Positions 10,749-59,277 of a stretch of DNA of 64,000 nt are shown here, in pieces. The DNA is from Prochlorococcus sp. AG-355-P07 (GTDB lineage: Bacteria; Cyanobacteriota; Cyanobacteriia; PCC-6307; Cyanobiaceae), in contig QCEN01000009.1 in assembly GCA_003280575.1 (NCBI GenBank), positions 25 through 64,024 of the forward strand. Reading direction: 5' to 3'. The notes below the pieces were generated by a model that saw only the letters and a program-made list of their open reading frames with translations, ran no database searches and was not told the DNA's origin. The number at the start of each line of letters is the position of its first letter. Within the stretch, counting starts at the first letter, position 1. The position numbers and the translations under genes were made by a program.

Positions 10749-10766
10749 TGTCTACTAAATACTAAA

Positions 10767-10780
10767 TGTGGAATGTTCAA
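10767..10780 (-). repeat. Copy A of the exact 14-nt word TTGAACATTCCACA (minus-strand reading), 19-32 nt upstream of the csoS1 ATG
   Basis: Plus strand reads tgtggaatgttcaa. Identical to the copies at 10998-11011 and 57798-57811. Confidence 0.9.
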
Positions 10781-10971
10781 TTCGAAGAATGCTTCATTAA
10801 GTACTTATAAGTCAAGCGTTTTCGACAAAATCTCCATTAATGTTTTTTCTATCATTCATAAGTTAAACTTATCACCCTTGGTACTATTGATATGTCAATA
10901 CTTATGCAAATTAGTTAGTGCATCAAAACATACTGTTGTGTTAAGAAAAAATTTACATTATGTTATTTCCG

Positions 10972-11028
10972 TACGAGACAGGCCCTGTCTATTCAGGTGT
11001 GGAATGTTCAACCTTTCCTGTCTCCGTA
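10972..11028. other. GC-rich stem-loop (GAGACAGG/CCTGTCTC, extendable to 11 bp with one bulge) whose 34-nt loop displays motif copy B
   Basis: 10975-10982 is the exact reverse complement of 11017-11024. TAC 10972-10974 pairs with GTA 11026-11028 across bulged C11025. A competing local hairpin AGACA/TGTCT lies at 10976-10990. Confidence 0.6.
10998..11011 (-). repeat. Copy B of TTGAACATTCCACA (minus-strand reading), 63-76 nt upstream of the Ham1 start
   Basis: Plus strand reads tgtggaatgttcaa. It shares a 15-mer (GTTGAACATTCCACA) with copy C. Confidence 0.9.
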
Positions 11029-11073
11029 TCAAGCTTTAAAGTAAGATAATATTCACAATATTTTTATATTATT

Positions 11074-11658
11074 TTGAACCTTCCAGTTCTAACTATTGCG
11101 AGTGGCAATCAAAGAAAGGTATCTGAAATTTCAGAAATGCTGGATGTTTTGTCTTTAAAGGTTGAGAAGCAACCAGAATATTTAAATGTCGAAGAGACTG
11201 GGAAGACATATTTTGAGAATGCTCTAATTAAAGCCAAGGCAGCTTCTCTAGAGACAAAAACTTGGGCATTGGCTGATGACTCTGGTCTTGAAGTAGATGT
11301 TTTAGATGGTCGACCAGGAATTTATTCTGCTCGATATGCCAAAAATAATGATGAGAAAATTAAAAAATTAATTAATGAACTTTCTGATAGTCCTTATAGA
11401 AGTGCAAGATTTATTAGTTGTATGGTTTTGTGCGATCCCTCAGGAAACTTAGTTAAAGATACAACAGGAATATGCTGGGGAGAAATTCTTAAGAACCCCA
11501 AATATCCTAATGGGGATTTCGAATCTATTTTTTGGGTTAAAGAAGCTAATTGTGTTTACGGTGAGCTCTCACAATCACAACTAAATAAATTAGGTAGTAG
11601 AGGTAAAGCTGCAAAAATTATGTCACCTTTTTTAAAAAAAGAGATAGGTTTAAGTTAA
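11074..11658 (+). CDS. rdgB: Ham1/RdgB family non-canonical purine NTP (dITP/XTP) pyrophosphatase
   Basis: 194 aa; LTIASGNQRKVSEI and the DDSGLEVD motif. TTG is the only canonical start in frame (in-frame stop at 11047-11049). Confidence 0.85.
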   Translation: MNLPVLTIASGNQRKVSEISEMLDVLSLKVEKQPEYLNVEETGKTYFENALIKAKAASLETKTWALADDSGLEVDVLDGRPGIYSARYAKNNDEKIKKLINELSDSPYRSARFISCMVLCDPSGNLVKDTTGICWGEILKNPKYPNGDFESIFWVKEANCVYGELSQSQLNKLGSRGKAAKIMSPFLKKEIGLS

Positions 11659-13064: not shown

Positions 13065-14330
<1,266 letters not shown>

Positions 14331-25976: not shown

Positions 25977-26771
25977 TTAAGAATTGTTTGGCCAATCTGA
26001 TTCCATCAGATTCATAATCAATTTAAACCAATGATTTATCAATAATTCCTTTAAATTTTTCCCTAAAGACTCATTTGCTCCTCTACTATCACCTATAACA
26101 CCTGATTTACTGAAGTCGTCAGTAAGCCAAGCGGTCGGAGCATTTCCCTCTAAACTCCAACCTTCTGGGATCTGTCCTTTTATGCCCTCATTTGGACGTT
26201 CATCACCTACTAATTCTGGTTTTAAAGCAAGCATCAAACTTGTTTCAGCTAAAGAAGCATGAAGCCCAACCTCGATCTCAGTTTTTGTTAACAAATCACT
26301 TAATCCATTAACGCCACTCCATAAGAAACAAGGGAAAACTGCCATCCCAGGTGCGAAACTTCTTAGCTCTCTTGCTGCGGTATTTAATAGTGAGATTTGA
26401 CCTCCATGTCCATTAATCAATATCAATCTTTTAAAACCCATTTCAGATAATTGAACTCCGACTTCCTTAATCATTGAGGTTAGCAAATTTGAGGAAAGTG
26501 AAATTGTTCCGGCAAAACCCTTATGTTCTGGAGAAAATCCAATATATTGAGTAGGAAGTTTTTTTAATGGAATATCGGAAGAGATTAATTTAAAAACTTC
26601 GCTAATTATTTCATCAACAAAAATACTATCTGTAGCAAGAGGCAAATGTGGTCCATGTTGCTCAACAGCACCGAATGGCCAAATCAATGTAGATCTTTTG
26701 TCTTTTGCAATACTTTCAATTTCTTGCCAATTTAAATATTCAAATTTATTAGGAATTGGTTTAAAGTTCAT
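25977..26771 (-). CDS. Creatininase (creatinine amidohydrolase) family protein
   Basis: GAVEQHGPHLPL and INGHGGQ motifs. Confidence 0.8.
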   Translation of the reverse strand: MNFKPIPNKFEYLNWQEIESIAKDKRSTLIWPFGAVEQHGPHLPLATDSIFVDEIISEVFKLISSDIPLKKLPTQYIGFSPEHKGFAGTISLSSNLLTSMIKEVGVQLSEMGFKRLILINGHGGQISLLNTAARELRSFAPGMAVFPCFLWSGVNGLSDLLTKTEIEVGLHASLAETSLMLALKPELVGDERPNEGIKGQIPEGWSLEGNAPTAWLTDDFSKSGVIGDSRGANESLGKNLKELLINHWFKLIMNLMESDWPNNS

Positions 26772-26837
26772 TAATTTTAATTTCGAGTACTAACATTTAG
26801 AGTATGTTAATAATTAATTATTCTTATTTTACCTACG

Positions 26838-30181: not shown

Positions 30182-31957
30182 TTAGTCTTCACAATTAACA
30201 TATCCAACCATTTGAGCATTACTTTTGCCAGGAGGAACCATTGGATAACAATTTTCACCTCTTCTGACAAGAATATTAATCAAGGCAGGGCCGTCATGAT
30301 CAAGCGCATTTTTTAATTCATTCTGTAATTGTTTTCTATCAGAAATCAAGTATCCTTTAACTCCAAAAGATTCAGCAAGTTTTACAAAATCAGGTTCACC
30401 ACAACTCATATCAGATGAAGAATATCTTTCATCGTAGAAGCTTTCCTGCCATTGCCTTACCATCCCTTGCCAGCGATTATTTATAATAATTAATTTTACC
30501 TTTAGACCATATTGAGATAAAGTTCCTAATTCTTGAATATTCATTAAGACACTTGCATCTCCTGCAATACAAATTACATCTGAATTAGGTAAGGCTGCTT
30601 TTACTCCAATTGCAGCTGGCAATCCAAAACCCATAGTTCCTAGGCCTGCACTACTAATCCATTTTCTTGGAGAATTTCTAAGATATTGAGCTGCCCACAT
30701 CTGATGTTGTCCTACATCTGTAGTTACATAAGCTTCGGGTAAAAGTTCCCTCACTTTTAAAAGAACCTCCTGAGGATAAATTTCTCCTTCTTTAGGTGGG
30801 TCATATAAAGGGTGTTTATTTTTCCAAAAATCAATTTTTTCTAACCAGTTTTTCGTCTGAAATGTAAATTTTTTATTTAAAGATTGTTCATTAATTTTAA
30901 GAACAGCTTTTGAAACATCAGAAACAATTGCAACATCTACGCGTCTATTTTTATTAACTTCTGCCGGGTCAATATCTATGTGAATTACCTTTGCTTTAGG
31001 TGCAAAAGTATCTAATTTTTCTGTCACCCTATCATCGAATCTAGCTCCAATAGCAATTAAAAGATCACATTCTGTAACAGCGAAATTTGCATAAGCAGTT
31101 CCATGCATTCCTAACATCCCTACTGATAAATTGTCTTTTTCATCAAAAGCACCTTTCCCCATTAACGTTGTGGTAACTGGTATTTGATAATTCTTAGCCA
31201 AAGTTTTTATTTCATCATGAGCCCCTGAAGATATTGCCCCACCTCCTACGTATAGAAGAGGTCTTACAGAATCTTCTATTAATTTAATTGCTTTATTGAT
31301 ATCGCAATCATTAATTTCTCCATTCCTTTTAAATCCTTTAGGAACAATCTCACCAGGCAAAACTCTCTGGTAATTAAAGAACTCCTGACCAACATCTTTG
31401 GGTATATCAATTAAGACTGGGCCTGGTCTTCCAGAAGAGGCTATAAAAAAAGCTTCAGAGACTACTTTCGCGATATCTGAAGGATCTCTTACTACCCATG
31501 AATGTTTCACTATTGGGAGAGTAATACCAAAAATATCAGTTTCTTGAAAAGCGTCTGTGCCGATAGCAGGTCTTGGGACTTGACCTGTAACTACAACTAG
31601 GGGGACTGAATCCATTTGCGCAGTGGCAATTCCAGTTACCAAATTTGTTGCACCTGGGCCTGAGGTCCCAAAACATACTCCTACCTCACCAGTAGATCTT
31701 GCATATCCATCAGCTGCGTGTGAACCACCTTGTTCATGCCTAACCATATAATGCTTTAACCAACCTTCTTGTTCTGCTTTATGAACAGCATCATATATTG
31801 GTAGTATGGCTCCTCCCGGATATCCAAATATAACTTTTACTCCATGAATTTTTAAAGAATCCATTAGTGCATCTGCACCAGTTATCCGAACTGGATTTTC
31901 ATGTTTTGAATTACCCTTTGAAAAGGATCTCGAAGTAAGGGTCACTAAAAAATTCAA
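30182..31957 (-). CDS. ilvB: Acetolactate synthase large subunit (ThDP-dependent)
   Basis: 591 aa maximal ORF; [13 protein letters not shown] and [14 protein letters not shown] motifs. Start (TTG 31957 or GTG 31945) uncertain. Confidence 0.92.
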
Positions 31958-55497: not shown

Positions 55498-57774
55498 TTA
55501 CAACTCTGCTGGATTAACATCTATTGTTAAAAAAACATTTTTTGGAATAAGTTTCCATAATATTGTTCTATCAGGTAAAGGTATCGTTGTTCCTTCAGGA
55601 CCATGTATTAATATCTGCCATCTAAATTTTTTACCGACTTTAGTAATTAAACTTGGAGCAGGGCCAATTAATTTCCAGTTCTTTTTCTCACAAAAATTGA
55701 GTAGATATTTTGCTAATTTTATTGCAATTGACTCAGTTAATTCATAATTTTCACCTGATAATTTAAGAAGGCAAATTGTGCAAAAAGGGAATAAATTAGC
55801 ATCTTTTCTCAATTTGGAGTTTTCAGTTAAGAATCTTTCATAATCTCTTTTCTGAAGATACGAAATTACCGGGTGGTTAGGTTTATATGTTTGAAAAATT
55901 ACTTTTCCTTTTTTTTGAGCCCTGCCTGCCCTGCCAGCTAGTTGCAAAAACAATTGTAATGATTTTTCTTCTGCCGAAATATCTGGACGATGAAGCAACC
56001 CATCTGCTGCAATAACTACTGAAAGAGTAATGTTGGGGATATCAATCCCTTTTGCCAACATTTGAGTTCCCACAAGAATATCAGCTTCACCTTTAGAAAA
56101 CTTTGAAAGAATATCTCTATGACCATCTTTCCCTGAGGTTGTATCTCTATCAAAGCGAAGTACTCTTAAGTCAGGAAATTCTTCATTTAAAAACTCTATT
56201 ACCCTTTGCGTACCTATTCCAAAAGGTTTAAAGGCGGTTGAATGGCAATCTGGGCAACGATTGATCAATCTTGATTTATGATCACACCAATGGCAGCGTA
56301 ACCATTTTTTCCCTTGTGAACCAAGATGCACTGATAAAGGAACATCACAGTTAGGGCAATTAATTAAATATCCGCAATTTCTACAACTTAAAAACCCACT
56401 GTGTCCCCTCCTAGGGATCAAAATTATCGCCTGCTCTTTTTTTATGCGTAGTTGAGGAAGCAATTGTAATAATTCATTGGAAAAAATTTTCATATTTCCT
56501 TTCTTGAACTCATCCCGCATATCAATAATTCTTATTTCAGGAATCTCATTACTGGATATCCTTTGAATCATTCTTACCAATTTAAAATTCTTTTCAAAAA
56601 TACACTTTTTCCAAGTCTTCATTGATGGGGTTGCACTCCCAAAAATTAACTTTGCTGAATTCCTTTTTACTATTTCAATAGCAATCTCTCTTGCGTCATA
56701 ACAAGGCATAGGACTATCTTGTTTATAAGAAACATCATGTTCTTCATCCATGATTATTAATCCTAGATTTTTCATTGGAAGAAAAACTGCGGACCTTGTT
56801 CCTATTACTATTAAAGGTTCATTGGCATTATTAATTCTCTTCCAAACCAAGGTCCTATGATTAGGAGAACAGTTACTATGGTATTCGTAAACAACATTAT
56901 TAAATCGCCGACTAAACCTATCAATAAGTTGAGGAATTAGTCCGATTTCTGGGGCTAGTATCAAACAACTTTTTTTCTTAAGAAGTTGATCTTCAGCAAT
57001 TCGCATATAAACTTCTGTTTTACCTGAACCTGTTTCGCCCCATAGAAGTAAAACATCTCCTGGTTTCATTGTTTGAAATTCTTGAAATGCAATTTTTTGC
57101 TCATTTGTAAGATTTGGTTTTTTAGTTGCAATATGATCATTTGAAAAGGAATTAAATTTAGTATTTATATTTTTTTTTCTTTTAGACTTAACAAGGTAAT
57201 TTTTACTAACCATTGAGCTAATTAAAGTATAATTAAAACCAGACTTTATTAATTCACTTTGCCAATTCCCTTTTTCAGGCAAAGTATTCATTAAAAAAAA
57301 TTCTTTTTTGGTTAATCCATTTTTCTTAATATCAAATCCTTTTTTAGTTTCAATCCATATTTGATCTTTTAAACCTTTTGAAAAATTCTTATATTTACCA
57401 ATCCAGCCAGGAGGAAATGCAGTTTTTAACATTTTTAAATTACTAACCATATAAAAAGAGGCTAGGGACTCTATACATTCTCTCCAAGAGTCATCAATTA
57501 TTTTTTTCTGCAAAATACTTTCAACAAACAAATATCTTATGCTTTTCCCTCGAGTAATATTTGCTGCATCATTATTGATTGTCGAAAAGTTTTTTTTTGA
57601 GATCACCAACCCATTCAATAATCTCCCTCTTAGTCTCACACTTACAATATCTCCAACTTCTGCCCCAAGATTATTTCCATCTAAATAGTAAAAACTTTCA
57701 TTACTACTACCTATATCAAGCAAAATTTCCAATTTGTAGGAGATATTTGATAACTGATTACTTGCCGGCTTCAA
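55498..57774 (-). CDS. priA: Primosomal protein N' (replication restart helicase PriA)
   Basis: 758 aa with Walker A GETGSGKT, DEEHD, and Cys-rich zinc motifs CRNCGY..CPNCD..CHWCD..CPDC. TTG start uncertain. Confidence 0.92.
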   Translation of the reverse strand: MKPASNQLSNISYKLEILLDIGSSNESFYYLDGNNLGAEVGDIVSVRLRGRLLNGLVISKKNFSTINNDAANITRGKSIRYLFVESILQKKIIDDSWRECIESLASFYMVSNLKMLKTAFPPGWIGKYKNFSKGLKDQIWIETKKGFDIKKNGLTKKEFFLMNTLPEKGNWQSELIKSGFNYTLISSMVSKNYLVKSKRKKNINTKFNSFSNDHIATKKPNLTNEQKIAFQEFQTMKPGDVLLLWGETGSGKTEVYMRIAEDQLLKKKSCLILAPEIGLIPQLIDRFSRRFNNVVYEYHSNCSPNHRTLVWKRINNANEPLIVIGTRSAVFLPMKNLGLIIMDEEHDVSYKQDSPMPCYDAREIAIEIVKRNSAKLIFGSATPSMKTWKKCIFEKNFKLVRMIQRISSNEIPEIRIIDMRDEFKKGNMKIFSNELLQLLPQLRIKKEQAIILIPRRGHSGFLSCRNCGYLINCPNCDVPLSVHLGSQGKKWLRCHWCDHKSRLINRCPDCHSTAFKPFGIGTQRVIEFLNEEFPDLRVLRFDRDTTSGKDGHRDILSKFSKGEADILVGTQMLAKGIDIPNITLSVVIAADGLLHRPDISAEEKSLQLFLQLAGRAGRAQKKGKVIFQTYKPNHPVISYLQKRDYERFLTENSKLRKDANLFPFCTICLLKLSGENYELTESIAIKLAKYLLNFCEKKNWKLIGPAPSLITKVGKKFRWQILIHGPEGTTIPLPDRTILWKLIPKNVFLTIDVNPAEL

Positions 57775-57797
57775 AACTTTTTCTTAATATTGGATTG

Positions 57798-57811
57798 TTG
57801 AACATTCCACA
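57798..57811 (+). repeat. Copy C of TTGAACATTCCACA (plus-strand reading) in the priA/rpoD divergent intergenic region
   Basis: Exact 14-mer, and a 15-mer with the preceding G shared with copy B. A 9-nt spacer then leads to the half-similar TTGCACATT at 57821-57829. Confidence 0.9.
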
Positions 57812-58095
57812 AAGTGTTTTTTGCACATTGTAAGTATCCTGCTCTTAAGGGAGACATGAAGCTTTGATCATTGACTGAAAATTCAAAATGATCTGCCTGT
57901 CTGAGAAATCCCAAGACTTTTTACTTTAGGTAATCTATAGCACTATTTAAATTTTTCAACAATTTAGAAAACTTTTCTATTTCTCATTTTGTGAAAAAGT
58001 TTTTTAAGCATTAAGGGTAACTTTACTACTAATTGTTCAAATTAACCCTAAATAAAATTTTATCTAGTTAAATTCACCTTAGATAGGAGTCAATT

Positions 58096-59277
58096 ATGTG
58101 TCCAGTCGCAGCAGAATCAAAAAATTCCAAGTCTAGTTCAAAAAAAAAGATCAATAAAAAAATTAATCCAAATTTAGAAACAGTAGTTGAAGGAGATGGT
58201 ATTAAAAATAGTCAAAATTCGCAGACATCTTCCGAGTTAAACGAAAGCAGTATTGAAAATAATAATGAATTTAATGATTCTGAAGAAGAAGATAAAGGGC
58301 TTGGGAATATAAAGCTTGGCCCAAAAGGTATCTACACTGAAGATTCAATAAGAGTTTATCTCCAAGAAATCGGAAGAATTAGACTTTTAAGACCAGATGA
58401 AGAAATTGAACTTGCAAGAAAAATTGCTGATTTACTGCAATTAGAAGAATTAGCAACTCAATATGAGTCAGAAAAAGGGCATTTCCCATCAGTAAGAGAA
58501 TGGGCCGAGTTAATAGATATGCCTCTTTCCAAATTTAGAAGAAGACTTCTTTTAGGGAGGAGAGCTAAAGAAAAAATGGTTCAATCAAATTTAAGATTAG
58601 TTGTTTCCATTGCAAAAAAATATATGAATAGAGGTTTATCATTTCAAGATTTAATCCAAGAAGGAAGTTTGGGTCTAATTAGGGCCGCGGAAAAATTTGA
58701 CCATGAAAAAGGTTATAAGTTCTCTACATACGCGACTTGGTGGATTCGACAAGCCATTACAAGAGCAATTGCGGATCAAAGTAGAACTATTAGATTGCCA
58801 GTTCACTTATACGAGACAATATCCAGAATTAAAAAAACCACAAAAGTTCTTAGCCAAGAATTTGGCAGGAAGCCTAGTGAAGAAGAAATCGCTGAAAGTA
58901 TGGAAATGACAATTGAAAAATTAAGATTTATAGCTAAAAGTGCGCAACTTCCTATTTCTTTAGAAACTCCAATTGGGAAAGAAGAAGACTCAAGACTTGG
59001 AGACTTTATAGAGGCTGATATAGAAAATCCAGAGCAAGATGTTTCTAAAACTTTATTAAGAGAAGATTTGGAAGGAGTATTAGCCACTTTAAGTCCGAGA
59101 GAAAGAGATGTTCTCAGATTGAGATATGGGATTGATGATGGAAGAATGAAAACTCTTGAAGAAATTGGCCAGATTTTTGATGTGACAAGAGAAAGAATTA
59201 GACAAATAGAGGCAAAAGCCCTAAGAAAACTTAGACATCCAAATCGAAATGGGGTTTTAAAAGAATATATAAAATAA
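58096..59277 (+). CDS. rpoD: Principal (group 1) RNA polymerase sigma factor
   Basis: 393 aa with regions 1.2-4.2 recognisable ([63 protein letters not shown]). Confidence 0.95.

Follow-up and report, generated by a model that had tools for sequence, protein, structure and literature searches.

A short word at the start of the carboxysome operon mRNA recurs in a folded Ham1 leader and between priA and rpoD: a possible RNA-RNA pairing module in Prochlorococcus

We analyzed a 64,000-nucleotide stretch of Prochlorococcus sp. AG-355-P07 (contig QCEN01000009.1, positions 25 to 64,024; hereafter the window) and found that a 14-base word, TTGAACATTCCACA, occurs in it in three exact copies. Copy A (10780-10767, minus strand) lies at the start of the carboxysome (cso) operon, copy B (11011-10998, minus strand) lies upstream of the divergent Ham1 gene, which encodes an rdgB-type nucleoside triphosphate (NTP) pyrophosphatase, and copy C (57798-57811, plus strand) lies between priA and rpoD. 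From G10778 on, copy A makes up the initial 12 nt of the mRNA of the csoS1-rbcLS-cso operon, and copy B falls, on the Ham1 strand, in a previously uncatalogued structured RNA. Our leading reading, which we put forward tentatively and at somewhat under an even chance, is that the cso mRNA is bound at its 5' end by the Ham1 leader RNA through base pairing, and that in high-light clades a distal rpoD mRNA is bound in the same way.

The window genome belongs to high-light clade II (HLII) of Prochlorococcus, and its priA protein shows 92-96% identity to HLII counterparts. The priA-rpoD spacer was compared across 79 HLII loci, one divergent high-light locus (L180) and five high-GC relatives, and the csoS1-Ham1 region across HLII, Prochlorococcus of ~50% GC (L091-L098), marine-Synechococcus-like loci of 55-63% GC and Cyanobium-like loci of 65-68% GC. 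Transcription starts of strain MED4 (csoS1, PMM0549; Ham1, PMM0548; rpoD, PMM0496; priA, PMM0497) were taken from published differential RNA sequencing (dRNA-seq) tables. The metatranscriptome contigs that we used carry no strand.

The copy between priA and rpoD had been reported as a third exact occurrence in an initial annotation of the window, and this was confirmed, with 0.00 exact matches to the word expected by chance (100 shuffles of the window). No site in the 64 kb matched the word with one or two mismatches, and sites at three to four mismatches were mostly in coding sequence. As that annotation had also claimed, the 15-mer at 57797-57811 is identical to copy B (GTTGAACATTCCACA), and identity ends at 14-15 nt, the sequences flanking the three copies being unrelated. 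The word has no dyad or spaced direct-repeat symmetry. Within the relatives' loci (255 kb), the 11-mer occurred 57 times against 0.08 expected, always at A or B and always pointing in the cso orientation. A metagenome scan with the 14-mer listed at least 120 stretches; five of those listed were Prochlorococcus-like, all of them in contexts A, B or C, and the others were mostly chance matches. The word set looks like one of two or three members and not like a regulon motif or a repeat family. A dispersed repeat of the miniature inverted-repeat transposable element (MITE) type, raised in the initial annotation, was rejected, as there are only three copies in 64 kb, with unrelated flanks and an identity restricted to 14-15 nt. 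Neither terminal inverted repeats nor a target-site duplication was visible around any of the three copies, and sites A, B and C are orthologously fixed across clades. These patterns argue that the word is conserved and functional, and neither chance nor a MITE.

At copy A, the 5' end of the cso operon mRNA reads GAACAUUCCACA. Metatranscriptome depth dropped from >100,000 in csoS1 to ~20 upstream of it, between 10751 and 10791, and one high-depth contig ended at 10778 with a template-switch-like joint. The MED4 primary start, supported by 90,415 reads, lies 44 nt upstream of the annotated csoS1 start, a position that would fit G10778 if the MED4 annotation uses the second ATG. Furthermore, in L088 the two T's before the G are changed while GAACATTCCACA is kept, which fits a transcription start at the G. 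The csoS1 promoter (10786-10815, minus strand; -35 box TTGACT at 10815-10810, -10 box CATTCT at 10791-10786) follows a conserved pattern, TTGAC-N17/18-CAyTsT-N7/8-GAACATTCCA(C) with 29-33 nt to the ATG, which we found in HLII, ~50% GC Prochlorococcus, marine-Synechococcus-like and Cyanobium-like loci. Indeed, GAACATTCCA(C) stands 29-33 nt before the csoS1 ATG in nearly all alpha-cyanobacterial loci fetched, and at the copy-A position, the core GAACATTCCAC shows no variation among picocyanobacteria of marine and freshwater origin whose GC content spans 31 to 68%.

Other features of this region were recorded alongside. The Ham1-csoS1 spacer (10749-11035, minus strand) is ~95-100% identical over its whole length among HLII genomes and includes a TTGACA-containing block at 10897-10860. 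One contig of run X7 (depth 4662) matched csoS1 up to 10766 and then continued into unrelated sequence that replaces the word; this contig could be chimeric or reflect a variant 5' end. An 88-amino-acid open reading frame (10773-11039, plus strand), whose ATG lies inside the reverse-complement word, was discarded because its sequence is implausible, it carries a 1-nt indel in L088 and it is never called as a gene.

No promoter was found for copy B in the cso orientation. On the plus (Ham1) strand, it reads UGUGGAAUGUUCAA, and this segment is unpaired in the folded leader RNA. The fold (10975-11024, plus strand) comprises an outer stem P1, GAGACAGG/CCTGTCTC, an inner hairpin P2, CCTG/CAGG, and then the single-stranded word complement. 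Apart from the version in the window, the sequence of P1 takes the forms GGAGCCGG/CCGGCTCC, GGAGTCGGG/CCCGACTCC, GCGACACGC/GCGAGTCGC and GAGGCAGGC/GCCTGCCTC in different lineages. The element was modeled with a covariance model trained on nine HLII sequences only, which replaced RNAalifold on MAFFT alignments, where the 3' arm was misaligned. This HLII-only model found the full-length element in high-GC loci, on the strand directed toward Ham1, with E values of 7e-10 to 0.03. In the structural alignment, which was fitted to the model and whose covariation figures are to be read with that caveat, 97.1% of the cells were paired, 9 of the 13 pairs were changed on both sides, covariation was 0.396 versus 0.129 in shuffles, none of 500 shuffles reached the score, and slid controls gave at most 0.08. 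Three independent T>C variants (L084 type, L105 and L174) yield a G.U pair on the Ham1 strand and an A.C mismatch on the other. GGAATGTTCAACC was invariant in 18 of the 19 aligned sequences, the seed was unpaired or in a hairpin loop in 14/16 single-sequence folds, and its mean unpaired probability in the window RNA was 0.61.

The fold lies close to a transcript start mapped in MED4. In MED4, a second, distal Ham1 start lies 102 nt upstream of Ham1 and 196 nt from the cso start; by spacing it maps to ~10974, one base before the model match, which would put the fold right where the distal Ham1 transcript begins, displaying UGUGGAAUGUUCAA. The contigs showed modest extra depth at 10992-11060. 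In HLII as well as in Cyanobium-like and marine-Synechococcus-like loci, GGTTGAACATTCCAC precedes Ham1 by 61-122 nt, and the copy-B element stays by Ham1 even where sbtA-sbtB is inserted between Ham1 and csoS1. This insertion, coding for a bicarbonate transporter and a PII-like regulator, was seen in L240, L242, L244 and L110; there, the copy-B fold lies ~250 nt upstream of sbtA and copy A remains at the csoS1 start. Rfam 15 gave no family at gathering thresholds in the whole window, and both spacers returned only noise (E > 3).

The start region of Ham1 itself differs between lineages. At 11053-11076 (plus strand), the high-GC Ham1 ATG, CACAATGG, reads CACAATAT in HLII, where the open reading frame begins at a TTG 21 nt downstream. 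The TTTTGAA start context that Ham1 and priA had been said to share is not conserved outside HLII. The Ham1 TTG region TTGAACCTTCCAGT matches the word at 11/14 positions; pairing in cis of the Ham1-leader loop with this region was rejected as HLII specific only.

In 79/79 HLII loci, copy C has no mismatch and keeps its distance from priA, so that the word is retained in the priA-rpoD spacers of sister strains, where its absence had been proposed as a refutation. By itself this conservation says little, since HLII genomes hardly differ anywhere in the block 57760-57965. L180, a metagenome contig from a different high-light clade, carries an exact copy C as well, and 63 of the 65 nt around the word are identical to the window, hairpin included; its rpoD coding sequence is 84% identical to that of the window, versus 93% for an HLII strain. 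The 11-mer was absent from the priA-rpoD spacer of the five high-GC relatives, which have a divergent priA-rpoD arrangement. These carry beside priA an rpoD-directed, near-consensus promoter, TTGCAA-N17-TAnnAT-N7-TTGGGCAGTCC, followed by conserved hairpins and a leader of 400-680 nt. At the homologous place, the window reads TAATAT-N7-TTGAACATTCC: a distal rpoD-directed -10 box at 57785-57790 (plus strand; TAGTAT in 78/79 HLII relatives) with a predicted start at G57797. Copy C starts 7 nt after this box, spans +2 to +15 of the predicted distal rpoD transcript and is the positional homologue of TTGGGCAGTCC, so that it appears to be a derived form of the sequence with which a conserved distal rpoD transcript begins. 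A viral-contig scan aimed at priA-rpoD spacers of low-light Prochlorococcus and high-light clade I (HLI) gave no matches, a genome scan yielded HLII sequences alone, and protein searches were dominated by HLII or Cyanobium relatives.

The geometry of copy C relative to its -10 box is the same as that of copy A. Both copies are in sense orientation, start ~7-8 nt after the -10 box and begin within ~2 nt of the transcription start, which at C is a predicted one. A role of the word as a -35 box was rejected, the spacing to any -10 box being unsuitable at A and C. Abundant metatranscriptome RNA covered ~57830-58096, and a depth ramp at 57792-57873 resembled the ramp at the cso 5' end. The rpoD ATG (58096) follows the end of the word at a distance of 285 nt, and on the minus strand the reverse complement occupies positions 24-37 nt ahead of the priA TTG (57774), with 23 nt in between; the distances in the initial annotation were correct. 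The imperfect hairpin described there was also present: ACAAAGTG (57809-57816) and CACATTGT (57824-57831) enclose a TTTTTTG loop on the plus strand, form 7/8 pairs and overlap the last 3 nt of copy C. It was kept in the 79 HLII loci and L180, where the length of the T run alone varies. The adjoining half-copy, TTGCACATT (57821-57829), did not hold up, since the window contains 58 matches to the 9-mer at no more than one mismatch, where 52 would be expected, which is chance level; it is simply part of the 3' arm of the hairpin.

Further elements surround copy C. The proximal rpoD promoter (58069-58082, plus strand; -10 box TAAATT, start at ~G58082) corresponds to the MED4 primary start 14 nt upstream of PMM0496 and lies in a conserved block. 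On the minus strand, a consensus scan predicted a priA-directed promoter, TTGAAA-16-TAGATT (57932-57959), of which L180 keeps TTGAAA/TAAATT; if used, it would give a priA leader of ~150 nt carrying the complement of copy C. The region upstream of rpoD (57833-58095, plus strand) forms a long, highly conserved and highly expressed leader, over which metatranscriptome depth equals or exceeds that of the rpoD coding sequence; the MED4 tables list no start for this leader transcript. It includes a nested hairpin at 57849-57913 (plus strand; GGGAGACA...GATCATT/AATGATC...TGTCT...TCCC), which has a clade-dependent loop on a conserved stem. In four high-GC relatives (L111, L248, L256 and L257), CATTCC/CATTCT stands immediately 5' of the distal rpoD -10 box; the same CATTC pentamer occurs in the cso -10 region (window 10786-10792; GCATTCT/GCATTGT) and in the core of the word.

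We propose that the word reflects, at the DNA level, an RNA-RNA pairing module centred on the carboxysome operon. In this module, GAACAUUCCACA at the beginning of the cso mRNA would be the pairing target. The distal promoter of Ham1 would give a transcript starting with the ~50-nt fold that exposes UGUGGAAUGUUCAA, and this leader would base-pair with the outermost 5' nucleotides of the cso mRNA, thereby changing the stability or translation of the cso mRNA or, reciprocally, those of Ham1. In high-light Prochlorococcus, there would be a third partner: the first bases of the distal rpoD transcript would have changed from GUUGGGCAGUCC to GUUGAACAUUCCACA, so that this transcript could pair with the same Ham1-leader loop over 15 nt. 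That the RNAs pair, the direction and sign of the regulation, the strand on which copy C works and the use of G57797 as a start by this strain's distal rpoD promoter are what we infer. Pairing is the simplest account of all these observations: sense copies stand at two mRNA 5' ends, the one at C predicted, and an antisense copy is exposed in a co-varying fold at a mapped start.

Several observations are consistent with this proposal. The A:B complementarity extends over 12-16 nt in HLII, Cyanobium-like and marine-Synechococcus-like loci but not in L091-L098, where two mismatches interrupt it, and the A-B identity beyond the core is lineage specific (CCACA in HLII, CCACCCCC(T) in Cyanobium-like loci and ..CTTAC in L233). 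The predicted B:A duplex reached -34 kcal/mol, compared to -14.9 ± 3.3 for shuffles, and the B:C duplex reached -25.6 kcal/mol; in single-sequence folds, the seed and both targets were largely unpaired. In MED4, the distal Ham1 start was called only in the three samples in which the cso start was weak or absent, a pattern across four samples that is only suggestive.

A number of findings weigh against the pairing proposal. At copy C, the contigs are unstranded and show no clean 5' end at 57797, and for the priA-rpoD spacer the MED4 tables contain the proximal start at -14 only. The energy of the B:C duplex is within reach of the best shuffle (-29.6), and the structural alignment behind the covariation was fitted to the covariance model. 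Reads at the cso start are 10 to 400 times those at the distal Ham1 start, so that the Ham1 leader cannot titrate the cso mRNA, and regulation may run the other way. In L091-L098, A and B drift independently from the consensus (GAACATCCCAT versus GAGCATTCCAC), which speaks against a strict requirement for pairing and would suit a trans factor shared by both sites. Finally, the 11-mer is invariant and the core never co-varies across a GC range of ~40%, indicating that some additional constraint acts on the 11-mer.

The last two points would be expected of a DNA operator, in which a sequence-specific protein recognizes the GAACATTCCAC duplex at +1 to +14 of the cso and distal rpoD promoters; copies A and C would occupy the classic repressor position, and B would be an auxiliary or Ham1-related site. 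We consider this explanation unlikely. It accounts for the geometry that A and C share relative to the -10 box, for an invariance without covariation, as a protein site would show, and for a drift of A and B in L091-L098 toward a common consensus; in addition, co-regulation joins the MED4 cso genes into a single module, and a preprint names RbcR as its suggested regulator. The word itself, however, has no dyad or direct-repeat symmetry, and degenerate copies are missing, with nothing between zero and three mismatches in 64 kb. Nor would a DNA site explain the compensatory changes of the opposite-strand RNA fold that contains copy B. The distance between A and B, 230-257 bp, does not keep to the helical phase and grows to ~1.7 kb with sbtAB, arguing against looping; we rejected DNA looping between A and B on the grounds of this unphased spacing and of the tolerated 1.5-kb sbtAB insertion.

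The known binding sites that we compared do not resemble the word either. It is unlike the motifs of NtcA, LexA and HLR1 and the T-N11-A dyads of LysR regulators. A DnaA box (TTTTCCACA), matched at 7/9 positions, and a LexA box (RGTACNNNDGTWCB), matched at a half-site only, were rejected; the conserved core reaches farther 5' than either box would. The window holds 10 occurrences of TTCCACA, and ~7 are expected by our estimate from base composition. Likewise, CGRE1, the PMM1637/GntR site, is a 22-nt palindrome with GTTA/TAAC flanks located ~55 nt upstream of the start site (PMC6191309), whereas the word is not palindromic and sits at +1.

The excess of cso reads also bears on a different arrangement, in which copy C would be used on the minus strand. 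The priA and Ham1 leaders would then both carry UGUGGAAUGUUCAA, located in the priA leader just 3' of the hairpin and 23 nt before the start codon, and the abundant cso mRNA 5' end would be the regulator of both, coupling DNA/nucleotide housekeeping to carbon fixation. Such a module, which we regard as unlikely, fits the excess of cso reads over those of Ham1 P2, the second start, as well as the order of hairpin, word complement and start codon, which is alike at B and C. The predicted priA-directed promoter at 57959-57932 is conserved, contigs of even depth run from priA codons through 57874-57888 in four runs, and the duplex between the minus-strand RNA of C and the cso 5' end was predicted at -25.7 kcal/mol, compared to -13.5 ± 3.0. 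The best other match of the B model in the window was indeed the minus strand of copy C, but at 11.9 bits and an E value of 1.9, this match is not significant. The candidate outer stem there has only 4 bp, one of which is lost in L180 without compensation, base pairs take up most of the word complement when the minus strand is folded (mean unpaired probability, 0.34), and the MED4 tables hold no priA start site. Moreover, minus-strand use gives no reason for the word to begin precisely 7 nt downstream of a conserved plus-strand -10 box.

Within the pairing module that we propose, we favor the use of copy C on the plus strand, for rpoD, over its use on the minus strand, for priA. Of the two linkages suggested in the initial annotation, that between the carboxysome operon and rpoD is better supported than a DNA-maintenance regulon of Ham1 and priA. 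Copy B does act on the Ham1 strand, as the latter would have it, but the evidence there is a Ham1-leader RNA element and not a shared promoter motif, and neither the half-copy nor the TTTTGAA context lends that regulon any weight. A broader version, in which the cso mRNA 5' end acts through an 11-15 nt word as a riboregulator of the Ham1 leader throughout alpha-cyanobacteria, of priA in high-light Prochlorococcus and maybe of the distal rpoD transcript, strikes us as a long shot. If it were true, mRNA-mRNA pairing would wire together carbon fixation, replication restart and global transcription in an organism from which most protein regulators have been lost.

We also considered that the three copies might serve unlinked functions. 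In that case, GAACAUUCC at +1 would be an initial-transcribed or promoter-proximal element, such as an AACATT pause or a 5'-end stability determinant, the Ham1 loop would bind a protein or ligand, and copy C would have arisen from GTTGGGCAGTCC by AT drift plus chance. In sigma-dependent pausing, a -10-like hexamer among the first 10 transcribed bases is followed by a pause, and AACATT (+2 to +7) keeps A2 and T6 of the -10 hexamer. The ancestral C sequence already agrees at 9/12 positions, two of the three changes being G>A, and A and B are not strictly complementary in L091-L098. Drift, however, gives no 15/15 identity with copy B and leaves the 63/65 conservation across high-light clades, where the rpoD coding sequence is at 84%, unexplained; a pause element explains neither the conservation through +11 nor copy B. 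In addition, a 13-nt loop that is the exact complement of the neighbor's mRNA 5' end from 31 to 68% GC is implausible as a coincidence. Taken together, we judge unlinked functions to be quite improbable.

The pairing that we propose has parallels in known systems. FasX-ska in Streptococcus and RoxS-yflS in Bacillus are cases in which a small RNA (sRNA) pairs with the extreme 5' end of an mRNA and alters its stability. As in these, a short, perfectly complementary seed in a structured RNA would face the first 10-15 nt of the target, away from the start codon. In contrast, the proposed seed lies in the 5' leader of a coding mRNA, that of Ham1, divergent from the promoter of the target. In Listeria, the riboswitch transcripts SreA and SreB act in trans on other mRNAs, and here too the 5' leader of one gene contains a stretch that could pair with the 5' untranslated region of another. 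Unlike SreA/SreB, the Ham1 leader has no evident ligand-sensing domain or terminator, and the U-tracts after its fold are inconsistent between lineages. With lac O1/O3 and gal OE/OI, where an operator at +1 is combined with a distant auxiliary operator, the loci share identical words in direct orientation at the start site and ~230-260 bp upstream; they differ in that the word is asymmetric, the spacing is unphased, and copy B follows Ham1 past a 1.5-kb insert and lies in a co-varying RNA fold.

Among cyanobacterial sRNAs, Yfr1, Yfr10 and Yfr2 carry an invariant single-stranded motif between variable stems that is conserved across picocyanobacteria, and MED4 Yfr10 pulls down csoS1 mRNA (PMC6778093, PMC6191309). 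The Ham1-leader element resembles this family in its invariant single-stranded motif flanked by variable stems; it differs in being a leader at another location instead of a free-standing gene and in having no Rfam match. Furthermore, the Yfr1/Yfr10 motif, ACUCCUCACAC, has a UCCU core, whereas the Ham1-leader motif is GUGGAAUGUUC. In the literature and in Rfam, we found nothing that describes the word or the Ham1-leader fold, and a search of the literature for the word returned unrelated primers only; Steglich 2008, Lott 2020 and the Red Sea metatranscriptome differential RNA sequencing (mdRNA-seq) papers do not mention these loci.

Prochlorococcus and marine Synechococcus contribute a large share of ocean carbon fixation, and we know of no demonstrated regulator of their alpha-carboxysome/RuBisCO operon. 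A 2026 preprint merely guesses at RbcR in this role. The present data add three handles: an invariant 11-nt element at the start of the cso mRNA across the alpha-cyanobacterial radiation, an adjoining structured RNA that exposes its exact complement and, in the most abundant ocean clades, a third copy heading a predicted sigma-factor transcript. If the RNAs pair, they would form a compact post-transcriptional switch for the carboxysome, and would illustrate the substitution of RNA for protein regulators in streamlined genomes. The pairing can be tested with oligonucleotides and reporters and needs no Prochlorococcus genetics.

As a minor observation, another exact word, TTAAAATTAATGAAC, also occurs in three copies with differing flanks in the window (13834-13848, plus strand; 26766-26780 and 30886-30900, minus strand). 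This word is AT-rich, and its triple occurrence is hence less surprising.

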